Shown in pieces: positions 550 to 56,765 of a DNA stretch of 64,000 nucleotides. The notes under the pieces were generated by a model. It did not search any database. It was not told the origin of the DNA and saw nothing but the letters and a program-made list of their open reading frames with translations. Numbering within the stretch: the stretch's first letter is position 1; every line of letters begins with the position of its first letter. The stretch lies in contig UQQL01000001.1 of the NCBI GenBank assembly GCA_900543275.1, forward strand, positions 39,674-103,673. Direction: 5' to 3'. This DNA is from an uncultured Collinsella sp. (GTDB lineage: Bacteria > Actinomycetota > Coriobacteriia > Coriobacteriales > Coriobacteriaceae). The position numbers were made by a program, and so were the translations under genes.

Positions 550-568
550 GCGCTTTGTCGTTCCCGAG

Positions 569-626
569 CCGGTAGTTAGGGACGTTCCTAAACTGCCGGC
601 AGAAAAGGAACGTCCCTAACTACCGG
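569..626 (+). repeat. long perfect hairpin containing the GGGACGTTCCTAAA motif (family A copy 1)
   Basis: ccggtagttagggacgttcctaaa ... aggaacgtccctaactaccgg, a 22-bp stem. It lies immediately after the stop of the upstream CDS. Confidence 0.6.
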
Positions 627-630
627 TCAA

Positions 631-670
631 AAAAACGAGCAAGGATCGCGGGGTCCTCGCTCGTTTTTTT
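631..670. terminator. bidirectional rho-independent terminator between the partial CDS (+) and topA (-)
   Basis: aaaaaaacgagc-aaggatcgcggggtcc-tcgctcgttttttt: a GC stem flanked by an A-run on one side and a T-run on the other. Confidence 0.7.
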
Positions 671-692
671 GGGCAATGTTTCGACTGCGCCG

Positions 693-8063: not shown

Positions 8064-8067
8064 AACC

Positions 8068-8094
8068 AGTCATTGGGGACGTTCTTAAATGACT
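8068..8094 (+). repeat. family A hairpin motif copy 2 (agtcatt-GGGGACGTTCTTAA-atgact)
   Basis: 7-bp stem around the conserved 14-nt loop, directly after the stop codon. Confidence 0.6.
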
Positions 8095-8095
8095 A

Positions 8096-8134
8096 AAACG
8101 CCGCCTGTGATGGTGTTCACAGGCGGCGTTTTTA
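8096..8134 (+). terminator. rho-independent terminator
   Basis: aaaacgccgcctgtga-tggtgt-tcacaggcggcgttttt. Confidence 0.75.
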
Positions 8135-10709: not shown

Positions 10710-10868
10710 GGATATCCTCCACTTGATATGTGTACTTGGACGTAGCTATGGTAGCACGCCGATGCCGAGCCTTATGAGACGGAAGGGTCGCGGCACAATT
10801 TGGGGCAAGCGCTGAGGCGAGGTCAGGGACGAAGCCTGTCCCCCTTTCACCACCTGCCCCCGCACCAG

Positions 10869-32168: not shown

Positions 32169-32184
32169 CCCAGGCAGCCACACC

Positions 32185-32213
32185 TAGTCATTTAAGTCTG
32201 TCCCCAATGAGTA
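32185..32213 (-). repeat. family A hairpin motif copy 3 (reverse orientation, degenerate loop)
   Basis: tagtcatttaagtctgtccccaatgagta versus tagtcatttaagaacgtccccaatgact, the reverse complement of copy 2. Confidence 0.5.
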
Positions 32214-32250
32214 GCCTTGGTGATCTGCAAATAGCTGTGGTCAAAAAACA

Positions 32251-32453
32251 TCAAATATGAGTACTGTTACCTTTTTAGTAGCAGCGATTTGGGGCATTTT
32301 TGATGCTTGTAGGCATGACGACCAGCTGCACGAGCTGACGTAGCTCCCCAAATGTTCAATAAAATAGGCTCCTAACGAGAAGTACTCTCATTAGGAGCCA
32401 TTATTATGTGCAAACATATGTGACCAACGCAGCAACAGTACTCATATTTGGCA
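32251..32453. mobile_element. MITE-like AT-rich insert with 17-bp perfect terminal inverted repeats
   Basis: CAAATATGAGTACTGTT at 32251-32267 and AACAGTACTCATATTTG at 32437-32453. The roughly 170-bp interior is near 40% GC in a roughly 65% GC genome. It has internal hairpin ggctcctaa...ttaggagcc. Confidence 0.4.
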
Positions 32454-32578
32454 TTTTTTGTCCACTGCCCCTTGCGCGAAGGTCCTCAGCGGAAAGTTTG
32501 ACCCGTTTCGATGCACAAAAATGGGATGAATCTTCCCTGGCAACCGCCCAGAAAGATCCACCCCAAAGCAAGCGCTCG

Positions 32579-34525: not shown

Positions 34526-34646
34526 AGGCACATCCTTTGTCTGTGGTACCAGTAGCGTCATTGTCCCACGTTTGCGAGTTCATGTGACGAACATCTAGGT
34601 CAGCGGAGCGTCAAAACGGGACAAAAGTCACGCCCGCCGCCGGCAC

Positions 34647-34672
34647 CTGGGGACGTTCCTTATCTGCCGGCA
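34647..34672 (+). repeat. family A motif copy 4 (GGGGACGTTCCTTATCTGCCGGCA, degenerate)
   Basis: Shares the GGGACGTTCCT-A-CTGCCGGCA core with copy 1. Confidence 0.45.
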
Positions 34673-34860
34673 ATCTGGGACACTCCTTGGCATAGCCCGC
34701 TCCGGCAATAGATACCACTTCATAGCTCCATCACAGGTGTAGCGGCTTTGTGTGGGCGCGGCATGCGCTGATTGAGCCGCCAGTTGAGGGGCATAAAGCA
34801 GTTGAGCGAAAACGGTTTGCCCCTTTGCCGTCCGCTTGAGGATCATGTCCCCCTTTTCCG

Positions 34861-37107: not shown

Positions 37108-37308
37108 CGATATCGAACTCCTTAGAGGGTCGTTGTTCAGATGCATGCCGCCGCGGCGGAGCATGGTGGCAGGGTAAGTGTCACATATCGTGCGGACACG
37201 TCCGAAAGCTCGCGCCAAACCGCCAATCTTAATCGTCATACGCCCAAAATACGAACGATCGATCTGTTATCCTGGCGCCAACATAGTCTTTCGAAAGGTT
37301 TGGCCGGG

Positions 37309-40185
37309 ATGACTACGCAGCAGCAGATTGATATTGAATTCGACTCGCTTGCACGCGAGAACGATTCACCCAAGCTCATCGCCAACTCGAAGGCGACCGG
37401 CGGAACATTACTATCCGTTATCAAGGAGCAGCTCTCGACCTGCAGCTCTTTTGACTTTTGCGTAGCGTTTGTTGCAGACGGTGGCCTTCAAATCTTGGTC
37501 GAAGCGTCCCAGGAGCTCAAGCAGCGTGGCATTAAGGGCAGGCTGCTGACGTCCACCTATCTCAACTTCAACTCACCCGATGCGTTTCGCAAGCTCCTGG
37601 AATACGACAACATAGAAGTTCGCGTATTCCAGGGTAATTTGCATGCTAAGGGATACATTTTTGATAAGGGCGAAACCAGCACGATAATCGTCGGCAGCTC
37701 GAACATGACGCAGACCGCCCTCACCTGCAATAAAGAATGGAACGTGCTGTACCAGACCGTTGAAAACAGCCGCTTGCTCGGAGAGCTTAGAGGTGAGTTC
37801 AATTCGCTGTGGAGTGACGCCTCGACCGTTGCGCTTTCCCAAGACTGGATTGACAAATATGCCGCATATCGATCGGCGCGTCCCCCAAAGCCCAAATCGA
37901 AACCGACGTTCCAGGCAACTGTTAGCCCAACCACGAACGATCTCGAAGAACTCAAGCCCAATAAAATGCAGCAGCGCGCCCTTGAGGCGCTCGGTGCAAT
38001 CCACCGTAAGGGCGAGACTCGCGCCCTGCTGGTCTCGGCAACCGGCACTGGCAAGACCTTCCTGTCGGCGTTCGATGTGCTCGCAACTAAACCCCGGCGC
38101 GTCCTCTTTCTTGCGCACCGCCGGCGCATTATCGACGCCTCCCGTGCAAGCTACGAACGGCTCTTAGGTAGTACCTATATGTTCGACACCTATCAAACTG
38201 GCAAGAATACAAGCGATGCTACCTGTGTGTTTGCCATGTGTTCTTCGGTCGCCAAACATCTGAGCGATTTCCGTCCCGATGAGTTCGACTACATCGTCAT
38301 CGACGAGGCCCACCGCACGGGATCTCAGGGCTACCAATCCATCATGTCGCACTTTACGCCTCGGTTTTATCTGGGCATGACCGCTACACCCAATCGCACC
38401 GACGGCTATGACGTCTTTGCCCTTTTCAATCACGTCATCGCATTCCAGATCACGCTGCAGGACGCTTTGTCCGAGGAGATGCTAGCCCCCTTCCATTATT
38501 TTGGCATTCACGATCTGGAGATTGACGATGAGACGATCGAAAATACCGCCCTGTTCGGGCGCTTAACGTCCGACGAGCGTGTGCGTCACATCACCGAGAA
38601 GATCGAAGAATATAGCGTCACCAAAAGCAGCCGCAGGGGCTTAATTTTCTGCAATCGAAACGCCGAGGCCAAAGAACTGTCGCGCAAATTCAACGCTCTC
38701 GGATATCGAACGGCTGCGATTAGCGGTCAAGATCCCGATGAAGTCCGCGATGCCGTTATCAGCCGACTTGAAGCCGGCGAGCTCGAGTATATTTTCTCGG
38801 TCGATATCATGAACGAAGGCGTCGACATCCCCTCGCTCAATCAGATCATCATGCTTCGACGCACCGACTCCGCAATCATCTTTATTCAACAGCTCGGACG
38901 AGGTTTGCGTCTGAATGATGGTAAGGAATACGCACTGGTGCTCGACTTTATTGGCAACTACCAGAGCAACTTCTTGGTGCCCATCGCGCTTTCGGGTGAC
39001 AAAACGTACAACAAAGATCGCCTGCGTCGTCTCGTCCAAGAGGGCGATTCGACGATCCCCGGATGCTCGACCGTGAGCTTCGATCGTATTTCCGAGGCAC
39101 GCATCTACAAGGCCATCGATGGCGGCGATTTCACCTCCGTCAGGTTTTTGAAAAACGAATATCTCGACTTGCGCCAGAAACTCGGCAAGATTCCCTCGCT
39201 GCTCGAATTTGATCGTAACGGCTCCATCGATCCGCTGCTTATCTTCAAGAATAGCGGCCTGGGGTCCTACCACGCATTTCTATCCAAATACGAGCCGGAC
39301 TACACGGTTCAATTTTCCTCTGATCAAACCAAGATTCTCAAATTTATTTCTCAAAAGCTCGCCGCGGGCAAGCGTTTCGAAGACCTCTATTTGCTTCAAA
39401 CGCTCGTCGAAGCCGGACACGAGGGCTACCGGCATATGCGCGAGGCTGCGCTTAGGAACTACCACACACAGCTTAAGGACAGCGCCGTTAGGTCGGCAAT
39501 CACAGTCCTTAAGGGCGACTTTGCCACTCCCAAGGATTTCGTTTCCCTGCTTATTGACGATGGATGCGGACCTCGTCTGACCGAAGCGTTTGCGACCGCT
39601 CTGCGCAACGCAGAGTTCAAGCGTCAGATTCTCGAGGTGCTGGATTTTGGCATTGCGCGTAACCGACTCGACTATGCCGAGACGTACCAAAACACAAATT
39701 TCGTTCTCAACGCCAAGTACACGTACGAAGAAGTTTGCCGCTTGATGAACTGGGAAAAGAACATCAACGGCCAAAATCTTGGCGGCTACTTCTACGACGA
39801 GAAGACCATTACATTCCCCGTGTTTATTAACTATGACAAGGCACCCGACATTAGCGAGTCCATTCAGTATGAAGACCGCTTTGTTTCGCCGAGTAAGCTA
39901 GTTGCAATCTCTAAGAACAACCGCACGCTCAACTCCCCCGAGATTCAGCGACTGCAGGCATGGCCGGGCAACGGGCTAAAGACGTATTTGTTTATGCGCA
40001 AGAACAAGGACGATAAGGGTGGCAAGGAATTTTACTTCCTAGGCGAAATGCATCCGACTGGCGAGTTCAAAGCTATTAAAACTAAGAGCGGCGACAACGC
40101 CGTCGAAATCGAATATGAACTCAATGCTCCCGTGCGCCAGGACATTTACGAGTTTATGCTCAGCGATCTGAGTGAGACAGAGTAA
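37309..40185 (+). CDS. PLD/HKD nuclease - SF2 (ResIII/DEAH) helicase - DUF3427-like C-terminal domain protein; restriction or defence-like
   Basis: A single HKD motif (HAKGYIFDKGETSTIIVGSSNMT) sits at the N-terminus. Helicase motifs I (SATGTGKT), II (VIDEAHR), III (TATPNR) and VI (QQLGRGLR) follow. The C-terminal roughly 350 aa resemble DUF3427. GC is markedly lower (about 50%) than neighbours. Start at the MTTQQQ Met. Confidence 0.85.
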   Translation: MTTQQQIDIEFDSLARENDSPKLIANSKATGGTLLSVIKEQLSTCSSFDFCVAFVADGGLQILVEASQELKQRGIKGRLLTSTYLNFNSPDAFRKLLEYDNIEVRVFQGNLHAKGYIFDKGETSTIIVGSSNMTQTALTCNKEWNVLYQTVENSRLLGELRGEFNSLWSDASTVALSQDWIDKYAAYRSARPPKPKSKPTFQATVSPTTNDLEELKPNKMQQRALEALGAIHRKGETRALLVSATGTGKTFLSAFDVLATKPRRVLFLAHRRRIIDASRASYERLLGSTYMFDTYQTGKNTSDATCVFAMCSSVAKHLSDFRPDEFDYIVIDEAHRTGSQGYQSIMSHFTPRFYLGMTATPNRTDGYDVFALFNHVIAFQITLQDALSEEMLAPFHYFGIHDLEIDDETIENTALFGRLTSDERVRHITEKIEEYSVTKSSRRGLIFCNRNAEAKELSRKFNALGYRTAAISGQDPDEVRDAVISRLEAGELEYIFSVDIMNEGVDIPSLNQIIMLRRTDSAIIFIQQLGRGLRLNDGKEYALVLDFIGNYQSNFLVPIALSGDKTYNKDRLRRLVQEGDSTIPGCSTVSFDRISEARIYKAIDGGDFTSVRFLKNEYLDLRQKLGKIPSLLEFDRNGSIDPLLIFKNSGLGSYHAFLSKYEPDYTVQFSSDQTKILKFISQKLAAGKRFEDLYLLQTLVEAGHEGYRHMREAALRNYHTQLKDSAVRSAITVLKGDFATPKDFVSLLIDDGCGPRLTEAFATALRNAEFKRQILEVLDFGIARNRLDYAETYQNTNFVLNAKYTYEEVCRLMNWEKNINGQNLGGYFYDEKTITFPVFINYDKAPDISESIQYEDRFVSPSKLVAISKNNRTLNSPEIQRLQAWPGNGLKTYLFMRKNKDDKGGKEFYFLGEMHPTGEFKAIKTKSGDNAVEIEYELNAPVRQDIYEFMLSDLSETE

Positions 40186-55506: not shown

Positions 55507-56418
55507 ATGTCCGCTTGCCCGCTGGTCGATTGTCACACCCACACCTCGTTTTCGGATGGCCATGCCTCGTTTGAGGACAACGTCCGCGCTGCTGCCGCCG
55601 CCGGCTGCCGCGTTATGGTCTCGACTGACCACCTCACCCTGCCCGCCAGCATGGACGCCAACTGCGAAGTGCAGGTTGTCGAGGGCGACCTGACGGCGCA
55701 TCGCCTGGCGTTTGAGGACGCCCGCAGGCTTGCCGCGCAAATCGCGCCGGAGCTTGAGCTTATCTATGGCTTTGAATGCGACTGGTACGAAGGTTGCGAG
55801 CCTTTGGTTGAGGGCTGGTCCGCGGGTGCCATAGTGCGCTTGGGCAGTGTGCACTGGATTGGCGACCCGGGCGATATCATGGCCGGCGCTGCGGGTACGG
55901 CGGGAACGGAGGGCGTCGCTCGCCCTGATACGCCCGATTCGCTCTGCGGCTGGATCGACGACGACACCAACCTGCATGTTTGGGAAAACCTGGGCGTGCG
56001 CGGCGTGTGGGAGCGCTACGTCGACGACTGGTGCCGTGCTTGCGAAAGCTCACTCAACTTTGATGTAATGGCCCATCCCGACCTGGTCATGCGCTTTTCG
56101 AAGGAAGGCTTTGCGCCCGACTTTGACCCCGCGCCGTTTTGGCAGCAGATGGCCGAGTGCGCCCATGACACGGGCCGGCGCGTTGAGGTCTCGACCGCCG
56201 CACCGCGCAAGGGCCTCGATGACTACTATCCCGCGACCGGATTGCTGCGTTGCTTCGCCCACGCCGAGGTGCCAATCACCTTTGGCTCGGACGCACACCG
56301 CGCCTGTGACATCTGTTGGAATATCCGCGAAGCGCAGGCCCACGCCTACGACTGCGGTTATCGAACCTTCGACATCCCCCACCCCACCGGAGAATGGGAG
56401 TCCACGCCCCTCGCCTAA
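55507..56418 (+). CDS. hisK: PHP-family histidinol-phosphatase (HisJ/HisK type)
   Basis: PHP motifs (VDCHTHTSFSDGH, MVSTDH, FGSDAH). Adjacent to the his operon. AAAGGAG RBS. Confidence 0.7.
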   Translation: MSACPLVDCHTHTSFSDGHASFEDNVRAAAAAGCRVMVSTDHLTLPASMDANCEVQVVEGDLTAHRLAFEDARRLAAQIAPELELIYGFECDWYEGCEPLVEGWSAGAIVRLGSVHWIGDPGDIMAGAAGTAGTEGVARPDTPDSLCGWIDDDTNLHVWENLGVRGVWERYVDDWCRACESSLNFDVMAHPDLVMRFSKEGFAPDFDPAPFWQQMAECAHDTGRRVEVSTAAPRKGLDDYYPATGLLRCFAHAEVPITFGSDAHRACDICWNIREAQAHAYDCGYRTFDIPHPTGEWESTPLA

Positions 56419-56421
56419 GAT

Positions 56422-56450
56422 TAGTCGTTGGGGACGTTCTTAAACGACTA
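56422..56450 (+). repeat. family A hairpin motif copy 5 (tagtcgtt-GGGGACGTTCTTAA-acgacta)
   Basis: Same loop as copy 2. The stem carries compensatory changes (cat/atg to cgt/acg). Overlaps the hisE stop codon. Confidence 0.6.
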
Positions 56451-56765
56451 GTGGCGGCGGGCATTGAGTTCGCCGGCCAGTTCGTCGAGGGTGATGCCGT
56501 AGCGTTCGAGTGTCACGAGCAAGTGATAGATCAGGTCGCCGGCCTCGTAGCGAATGTGATCGTGGTCGTTATCCTTGCAAGCCATGATAACCTCGCTCGC
56601 CTCCTCGGCAAGCTTCTTGAGCAGCTCGTCCTCGACATCGGTCAGCAGACGGGCGGTATAGCTCTCCTGCGGCGACGCATCGCGACGGCCGTGAATCACC
56701 TCAGCAAGGCCGGTCAAGGTCTCGCCGATATTTCCCGGCTGCACGTTAGCGGTTCTGACTCCCAT
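56448..56765 (-). CDS. hisE: phosphoribosyl-ATP pyrophosphatase
   Basis: MazG-like HisE (LAEEASEVIMAC...EAGDLIYHLLV). Confidence 0.9.
   Translation of the reverse strand: MGVRTANVQPGNIGETLTGLAEVIHGRRDASPQESYTARLLTDVEDELLKKLAEEASEVIMACKDNDHDHIRYEAGDLIYHLLVTLERYGITLDELAGELNARRH

Follow-up and report, generated by a model that had tools for sequence, protein, structure and literature searches.

A short intergenic hairpin of Collinsella as the probable unit of a high-copy, REP/BIME-like repeat family

Just behind a stop codon in an uncultured Collinsella sp., at positions 8068-8094 of the stretch of DNA analysed here (64,000 nt in all, hereafter the window), lies a short hairpin around a conserved centre, which raises the question of whether it is a signal belonging to its neighbouring genes or one member of a dispersed family. 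A first-pass annotation had listed five such hairpins in the window and proposed a REP-like or protein-binding element, or a transcript 3'-end stabiliser, specific to this lineage. Our analysis favours the dispersed family: the hairpin is probably one unit of a high-copy, genus-wide Collinsella family of short intergenic palindromic repeats that is REP/BIME-like in kind.

Repeat units in the window and their anatomy

All five hairpin copies were found where the annotation had placed them. A search with GGGACGTTCYTWA at no more than one mismatch gave five matches (579, 8076, 34650 and 56431 on the plus strand, 604 on the minus strand) against a mean of 0.18 in shuffled windows, and none of 100 shuffles reached five. 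The copy 1 site consists of two inverted units and thus supplies two of the five matches; copy 3 is too divergent for the pattern and was recovered by a covariance model of the unit. This model, which was built from 95 distinct units with some window copies in the training alignment and was run with the filters off, returned six units in the window at 34.7-40.6 bits (E ≤ 6e-8), with the next best match at 11 bits (Table 1). The looser core GGGAC[AGC]N[ACT]C[CT]T matched seven times, compared with 1.3 expected, with all seven matches intergenic, and added a seventh unit without a hairpin at 34677-34687. The window total is therefore six strong hairpin units and one hairpin-less unit, distributed over five intergenic sites and none in coding sequence.

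Table 1 Repeat units and adjoining terminators in the window, with arms, centres and flanking genes.
Feature	Position	Strand	Arm-centre-arm	Bits	Covariance-model match	Context
Unit 1a, class B	569-599	+	CCGGTAGTT-AGGGACGTTCCTA-AACTGCCGG	37.5	568-600 (+)	Left half of 58-nt palindrome; zinc-ribbon gene and topA, convergent
Unit 1b, class B, reverse orientation	596-626	-		34.7	595-627 (-)	Same spacer as unit 1a
Bidirectional intrinsic terminator	628-671	.				Separate, outside the repeat family; adjoins copy 1 doublet
Unit 2, class A (copy flagged in the first-pass annotation)	8068-8094	+	AGTCATT-GGGGACGTTCTTA-AATGACT	38.5	8065-8097 (+)	Arms 8068-8074 and 8088-8094; 94-aa gene and nhaA, convergent
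Bidirectional intrinsic terminator	8095-8132	.				Separate; adjoins unit 2; -29.4 kcal/mol
Unit 3, class C/A hybrid	32184-32214	-	CTACTCATT-GGGGACAGACTTA-AATGACTAG (reverse complement)	36.9	32183-32215 (-)	GNAT gene and DUF2207 gene, convergent
Unit 4a, class B1	34639-34671	+	GCCGGCA-CCTGGGGACGTTCCTTATC-TGCCGGC	38.3	34639-34671 (+)	Arms 34639-34645 and 34665-34671; divergent promoter spacer of DUF2207 gene and GluQ-tRNA-synthetase-like gene
Unit 4b, class B2, without arm of its own	34669-34690	+	GGCAATCT-GGGACACTCCTT-G			27 nt downstream of unit 4a
Unit 5, class A	56421-56451	+	TAGTCGTT-GGGGACGTTCTTA-AACGACTA	40.6	56420-56452 (+)	Arms 56422-56429 and 56443-56450; PHP-domain gene and hisE, convergent

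Several details of the annotation held as well. Copies 1, 2, 3 and 5 lie 17, 4, 16 and 3 nt after a stop codon, which bears out the stop-codon proximity it had reported for four of the five, and the stems of copies 2 and 5 are as described there. Unit 5 occupies the gap between the stop of the PHP gene (56416-56418) and that of hisE, and the hisE stop (TAG, minus strand, 56448-56450) falls inside its right arm, in agreement with the overlap that had been pointed out; the separate intrinsic terminators reported after copies 1 and 2 are also there. The palindrome of copy 1 spans 58 nt at 569-626 as claimed, but its perfect arms measure 21 bp, not 22. Its two units share CCGG (596-599) and make a forward-then-reverse (+-) doublet with a folding energy of -45.3 kcal/mol. 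Copies 3 and 4 had been dismissed as degenerate, whereas both fall into recurrent subfamilies (the fetched loci contain GGGACAGACTTA 20 times and GGGACGTTCCTT 33 times) and are thus ordinary members of abundant subfamilies, copy 3 having no perfect 7-bp stem. The B1-B2 pair formed by units 4a and 4b was seen again in many loci. The fetched loci amount to about 780 kb in 8-kb blocks of contigs and were chosen by one exact 17-mer, so that class A is inflated among them.

Common to all subfamilies is an asymmetric, invariant core, GGGAC-N3-C-Y-T, while the arms differ (AGTCRTT, ACTCATT, GGCASTT). The unit has a 27-nt period, and in most subfamilies the core is flanked by inverted arms of 5-9 bp; what is conserved is the centre or loop of 13 nt, and the stems are AT-rich. 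Class A reads (C)TAGTC[A/G]TT-GGGGACGTTCTTA-AA[T/C]GACTA(G), with a variant whose 3' side is ...CTTG-TTTGACTA; class C reads ACTCATT-GGGGACAGACTTA-AATGAGT, window copy 3 being its hybrid with class A; and class B1, which includes window copies 1 and 4, reads GGCA[G/C]TT-[A/G]GGGACGTTCCT...-[C/G]TGCC. Classes B2 (GGGACACTCCTT) and D (GGGACAGTC[C/T]TT) have no arm of their own.

The annotation had argued for a selected stem-loop from compensatory changes between copies 2 and 5, and the conclusion fared better than the argument. Perfect flanking arms of at least 5 bp were present in 55% of units but at only 4.8% of random positions. Across eight arm pairs in the 95 distinct units, 72.5% were paired compared with 60.4% in shuffles, a level that none of 500 shuffles reached, and pairing fell to 25-50% if the partner was slid by a few columns. 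The covariation score of the arms was 0.42 versus 0.25, with changes on both sides in all eight pairs; these changes separate subfamilies and so represent few independent events. Hairpin potential is genuinely maintained across subfamilies. Within class A, however, the compensatory argument is weak, since the position in question covaries weakly and is nearly uncoupled among 72 distinct copies (A..T 27, A..C 26, G..C 14, G..T 5). A single class A unit folds on average at -7.5 kcal/mol as RNA of the GGGAC strand, -4.8 as RNA of the complement and -2.8 as DNA, the GGGAC strand folding better because G-U pairs extend its stem. With AT-rich stems, no T-run and folding energies of -8 to -11 kcal/mol, the units do not qualify as intrinsic terminators.

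Arrays and genomic location

Units abut directly in mosaic arrays of 1-7 units, in which subfamilies can mix. Neighbouring class A units share TA or CTAG of their arms, so that the junction reads GACTAGTC, and neighbouring class B units share CCGG; the distance from core to core is mostly 16 nt, hence the 27-nt period. Transitions between adjacent units numbered 51 for ++, 49 for --, 42 for +- and 10 for -+, which gives the arrays a polarity, forward units being followed by reverse units. Forward-reverse doublets were accordingly four times commoner than reverse-forward ones (42 versus 10), and their halves are 85% complementary on average, with none of 39 perfect. The idea that the doublet is one coherent master element whose outer (A/T) arms are distinct from its inner (G/C) ones was rejected: no consistent arm pattern appeared in seven class A-pattern doublets, and the lack of a single perfect doublet among the 39 also counters it.

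Other small elements were seen in or beside the arrays. Arrays beside hisE contain an element of about 170 bp whose ends, TTACTACGATGAA...TTCATCGTAGTAA, are inverted (loci L137, 1900-2100; L141, 1880-2080; and L095), and arrays apparently attract other small insertions, like REPs do. A recurrent palindrome of about 70 nt, GAGAGTGGATAATCTCCC...GGGAGATTATCCACTCTC, stands beside many arrays (L015, L018, L029, L035, L037) and constitutes a separate repeat family.

The array junctions recall transposons of the IS630/Tc1 type, in which case class A units would be miniature elements of 25 nt inserted at TA with duplication of the TA; every insertion would restore the target on either side of itself, and arrays would grow with the junction GAC-TA-GTC. 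The sum of 25 nt and TA gives the 27-nt period, the GACTAGTC junctions have a single shared TA, lengths change in 27-nt steps, and of the ACTAGT and CTAG sites sampled, 83% and 26%, respectively, lie in units. Of the features expected of MITEs, the arms function as short terminal repeats and arrays vary by single units, but the sharing of TA at junctions fits class A only: classes B, B2 and D have the same period and core without TA or CTAG ends. At outer boundaries the base before TAGTC was G in 61 cases, C in 55, T in 16 and A in 13; with G as common there as C, we rejected CTAG as a specific insertion target. Moreover, no IS630-like gene was seen among the sampled loci, slippage between the 9-nt repeated arms gives the same length changes, and 25 nt is far too small, known miniature transposable elements all being far larger. 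We therefore regard insertion of this type as very unlikely.

Units avoid genes. The 843 kb of Collinsella DNA examined for location, 82% of it coding, contain 339 units, of which 327 lay outside called coding sequence and 12 (3.5%) inside. Clusters occupied 36 of 113 convergent spacers (32%), 50 of 406 tandem spacers (12%) and 18 of 109 divergent spacers (17%). Many clusters begin on or shortly after a stop codon, with many units 3-20 nt behind it, and several adjoin an intrinsic terminator. Counted per unit, sense orientation was mildly favoured (147:86 overall and 40:16 at up to 40 nt from a stop); counted per site, the single units in tandem spacers were antisense in four cases and sense in one.

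Unit density was 0.05-0.11 per kb, which extrapolates to about 100-300 units per 2.4-Mb genome. A motif that is genus-specific, over-represented and often present as inverted pairs beside terminators could be a DNA uptake sequence for natural transformation, comparable to the Neisseria DUS or the Haemophilus USS. Uptake sequences, however, occur about once per kb and are frequent inside genes too, and directly abutting arrays are no feature of them; the present units are far sparser, nearly absent from coding sequence and split into several subfamilies. The low density and the absence from genes together exclude this function, and we hold it to be extremely improbable. Avoidance of GGGAC as a restriction-modification site was likewise rejected, its observed/expected ratio in coding sequence being 0.84 (rank 166 of 1024).

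Turnover between strains and the readings that it bears on

The 156 clusters collapse to 44 orthologous sites, and with merely 44 sites the unit counts are not phylogenetically independent. Where flanks were at least 97% identical, the number of units differed in 12 of 52 comparisons and no site was empty; at 90-97% identity it differed in 42 of 90, with seven sites empty. Altogether 94% of orthologous spacers retain at least one unit. These counts indicate that occupied sites persist while the content of their arrays turns over, and length differences of about 27 nt are frequent between strains. A clean pair of empty and filled sites with a target duplication was looked for among the orthologous sites and not found, so that transposition as such stays putative.

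The window sites illustrate this turnover. In strains with an identical 94-aa protein, the copy 2 spacer carries the unit in the opposite orientation (four loci) or an array of about seven units (L003), and an unrelated insert of about 290 bp replaces the unit in L002, L005, L007, L008 and L009. The site orthologous to copy 3 holds two units in L016 and L089 and four in L036. At the hisE site, in strains with an identical HisE, a forward allele fills exactly the 27-nt gap between the two stops; the window carries the reverse allele, and in some strains another small element breaks up large arrays. Besides orientation, the flipped hisE alleles differ in their flanks, by 2 nt, and at positions in the arms. 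Subfamilies can swap at one site as well, as with class B doublets, class A pairs and class E (copy 1; tmk/zinc-ribbon spacer).

Further elements were noted around these sites. Class E is a palindrome of GTTGCGGTGAAATAGGGAC, about 26 nt and GTCCCTATTTCACCGCAAC with a GGGAC core, and alternates with class A or B units between strains (L001-L004, L006, L007 and L010 at about 1650-1740; L003 and L005 at about 2830-2900; L050). In the window, 13 nt separate unit 3 from a MITE-like element of about 250 bp (32227-32475). The terminal inverted arms of this element are imperfect and 42 nt long; a perfect 16-mer, AAATATGAGTACTGTT, occurs in it at 32253 (+) and 32434 (-), an inner hairpin of 22 nt lies at 32359-32407, and the insert of about 290 bp in the 94-aa/nhaA spacer is related to the element. 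A small palindrome, GGGACGAAGCCTGTCCC, at about 10822-10850 in the spacer between a DHH-family and a ROK-family gene is probably a diverged relative that the core pattern missed; strains of the same species carry a reverse GGGACAG[T/C]CTT unit there.

This turnover bears on the proposal of a transcript 3'-end stabiliser or, more broadly, of a cis-acting RNA element in 3' UTRs, whose GGGGACGUUCUUA-loop hairpin, once transcribed, would act by shielding the 3' end, by pausing or terminating RNA polymerase, or as the target of an RNA-binding protein. The many units that begin 3-20 nt after a stop codon, the better RNA fold of the GGGAC strand (-7.5 versus -4.8 kcal/mol) and the mild sense bias per unit are what such an element would lead one to expect. 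Yet opposite orientations occur at one and the same site in strains with identical flanking proteins, and at two window sites the opposite orientation in other strains argues against a strand-specific RNA role, which is unlikely. Orientation is inconsistent when counted per site, with antisense single units outnumbering sense ones in tandem spacers; both orientations occur within arrays; and 18 clusters, window copy 4 among them, lie in divergent promoter spacers. The single hairpin is weak and AT-rich and has no U-tract, and strong canonical terminators stand directly beside copies 1 and 2. The stabiliser proposal is thus not supported, and an RNA element of any of these kinds appears quite unlikely.

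The reading that we favour is a family of dispersed DNA repeats. Array changes would arise by slippage or recombination between the repeated arms, and a forward-reverse doublet that lost either half would look like an inversion of the loop. The flipped alleles do not call for site-specific loop inversion, as recombination between the 9-nt repeated arms accounts for them through loss of half a doublet. Three features point to a protein that reads the core: the invariant, asymmetric sequence of that core, the fixed phasing of the units and the polarity of the arrays. A putative trans-acting enzyme or protein of this kind may have dispersed the family and may keep it uniform, probably recognising the core in single-stranded DNA that the arms have folded into a hairpin. 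If the host profits at all, for instance through a 3' hairpin or a landing site for a protein, this would be secondary. Persistent occupancy and an invariant core could, however, equally reflect selection for a host function.

In one such function the units would serve a chromosomal protein as DNA sites; this protein, for instance gyrase, a nucleoid-associated protein or a transcription roadblock, would need phased GGGAC between transcription units. E. coli BIMEs are bound by gyrase and IHF. In keeping with this, the asymmetric core is invariant though the arms of the subfamilies differ, 27-nt phasing is fixed, arrays have a polarity, convergent spacers are preferred, and occupancy is kept across the genus while array content changes. 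However, no candidate protein could be identified, GGGAC is neither avoided nor enriched in genes (observed/expected 0.84), and the unit count of a given site ranges freely between 1 and 7, an oddity in a tuned binding array. We consider this function unlikely as the primary one, although it is compatible with a REP/BIME-like family.

Host range, candidate enzymes and relation to known systems

Scanning of one-genome-per-species bacterial DNA with the exact 17-mer TTGGGGACGTTCTTAAA matched at least 120 stretches; among the matches listed, all belonged to Collinsella, Coriobacteriaceae or unnamed gut bins, except for three. The first exception was a chance match without arms on a contig of 39.5% GC. 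The other two were small contigs of 58% GC labelled Methanobrevibacter and Sodaliphilus, which are about 94% identical to Collinsella loci and hence mis-binned. In a viral collection the single match lay on a contig 98% identical to Collinsella chromosomal loci, and carriage by phages was rejected because this sole match is Collinsella chromosomal sequence. Among the fetched loci, the short repeat-bearing contigs labelled Methanobrevibacter smithii (L107), Sodaliphilus sp. (L031) and 'viral' (L131) must be mis-binned or mis-called, given their 58-61% GC and an identity of 94-98% to Collinsella loci. In true contig coordinates, 30 of 133 matches lay within 300 nt of a contig end, compared with 6.8 expected, a 4.4-fold enrichment typical of repeats that break assemblies. 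The REP-like, lineage-specific element of the first-pass annotation is thereby supported: the units are high-copy, intergenic, clustered, strain-variable and, in the genome scan, restricted to Collinsella.

Against the reading as a REP/BIME-like family, no transposase of any kind could be tied to the units in a test of low power. A pattern search over 208 protein families from about 1.1 Mb of sampled loci gave no HUH/Y1 signature, again with low power, and tblastn over the same roughly 1.1 Mb with three Y1 transposase queries gave only E > 0.1, at similarly low power. Pfam analysis of genes flanked by units on both sides found housekeeping genes and no RAYT, IS630-like or other transposase. 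On the plus strand of the window, 37141-40185 encodes a 1014-aa protein with PLD-nuclease, helicase and DUF3427 domains that the GC3-based gene filter had left uncalled; it is possibly a horizontally acquired defence-type gene.

More speculatively, the invariant, asymmetric GGGAC-N3-CYT core, set in a hairpin with freely changing arms, might be the recognition site of a putative dedicated Actinomycetota factor that copies and maintains the arrays and orders them, with forward units ahead of reverse ones in a 27-nt phase, an idea to which we assign a low probability. Candidates for such a factor would be a structure-specific DNA-binding protein or a nuclease or transposase, domesticated and with no relation to RAYT, and the same system might lie behind the GGGAC palindromes of Bifidobacterium. 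If true, it would represent a second, independent partnership of repeat and protein, analogous to REPIN-RAYT.

The closest parallels are the REP/BIME sequences of Enterobacteria and the REPIN-RAYT system of Pseudomonas. Like these, the Collinsella units are short, extragenic, imperfect palindromes at gene ends and in convergent spacers, high-copy and dispersed, and able to form a stem-loop; like REP/BIME sequences, they form mosaic arrays of several subfamilies at sites that are vertically inherited while their content is quick to change, and like REPs they break assemblies and attract other small insertions. They differ in architecture. No conserved 5' GTAG/GTGG head is present; the stem is short and AT-rich and the centre conserved, whereas REPs have a GC-rich stem and a small variable loop; and, in contrast to the strict alternation and conserved linkers of BIMEs, units abut, forward before reverse, with same-orientation neighbours dominating. 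No RAYT was found in the approximately 1.1 Mb sampled, a low-power comparison with REPIN-RAYT. The listed hosts of REP/RAYT are Proteobacteria (PMC2817692); Collinsella belongs to the Coriobacteriia within the Actinomycetota.

The remaining comparisons are looser. Neisseria dRS3 and NIME repeats and Correia elements resemble the Collinsella units as short inverted-repeat units in intergenic mosaic arrays with TA-type junctions, strain variation and positions beside terminators. NIME repeat units measure 50-150 bp, however, and dRS3 has conserved ends around a variable centre, a layout opposite to that of the Collinsella unit; no sequence similarity to the Neisseria elements is known. Mycobacterial MIRU/VNTR loci are likewise intergenic, actinobacterial and variable in copy number between strains, and overlap stop codons, but MIRUs are direct repeats of 46-100 bp in one orientation and are not known to be palindromic or to have a conserved hairpin loop. 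In Bifidobacterium animalis subsp. lactis AD011, there are 21 copies of GGGACAG(N)15TGTCCC, 95% of which lie between genes and mostly close to 3' ends; the paper lists it, without explaining it, as a 'potential novel motif' (PMC5217627). It is likewise an inverted pair with a GGGAC core, comparable to inner pairs of Collinsella such as GGGACAGTC(C/T)TT ... AAGRCTGTCCC, but has only 6-7 nt in common with the Collinsella unit. A guessed Bifidobacterium hairpin, GGGACAGTCCTTN4AAGGACTGTCCC, gave no match in metagenome contigs, the query being approximate.

At the gathering score, Rfam 15 returned no family for the units in the window, Collinsella-1 (RF01700) included, the only matches being tRNA and Ref55; on 50 kb of array-rich loci at E ≤ 1 it gave only spurious miRNA-type hairpin matches. 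The Ref55 match (Enterococcus sRNA 55, RF02838; 17789-17842 on the minus strand; 46.9 bits against a gathering score of 43) directly follows a mannose-6-phosphate isomerase gene and is probably a terminator-like hairpin, not a true homologue. No paper with the sequence came up when the literature was searched by string and topic, the only related item being the B. animalis GGGACAG motif. The family is apparently undescribed, and is best read as REP/BIME-like repeats with an unusual architecture.

Collinsella is a prevalent human gut genus that has been linked to disease and whose species structure is badly resolved. The repeats fragment its assemblies, and small repeat-bearing contigs have been binned into Methanobrevibacter and Sodaliphilus genomes. 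As they generate most of the intergenic length variation between strains, they could serve as VNTR-like markers for strain tracking. They also provide stop codons, and in housekeeping genes they remodel the 3' ends and some of the promoter regions. The Collinsella repeats are a new example of a familiar phenomenon, not a new principle, and as a model they allow the persistence of REP-like repeats with no obvious RAYT to be studied in a high-GC Gram-positive bacterium.
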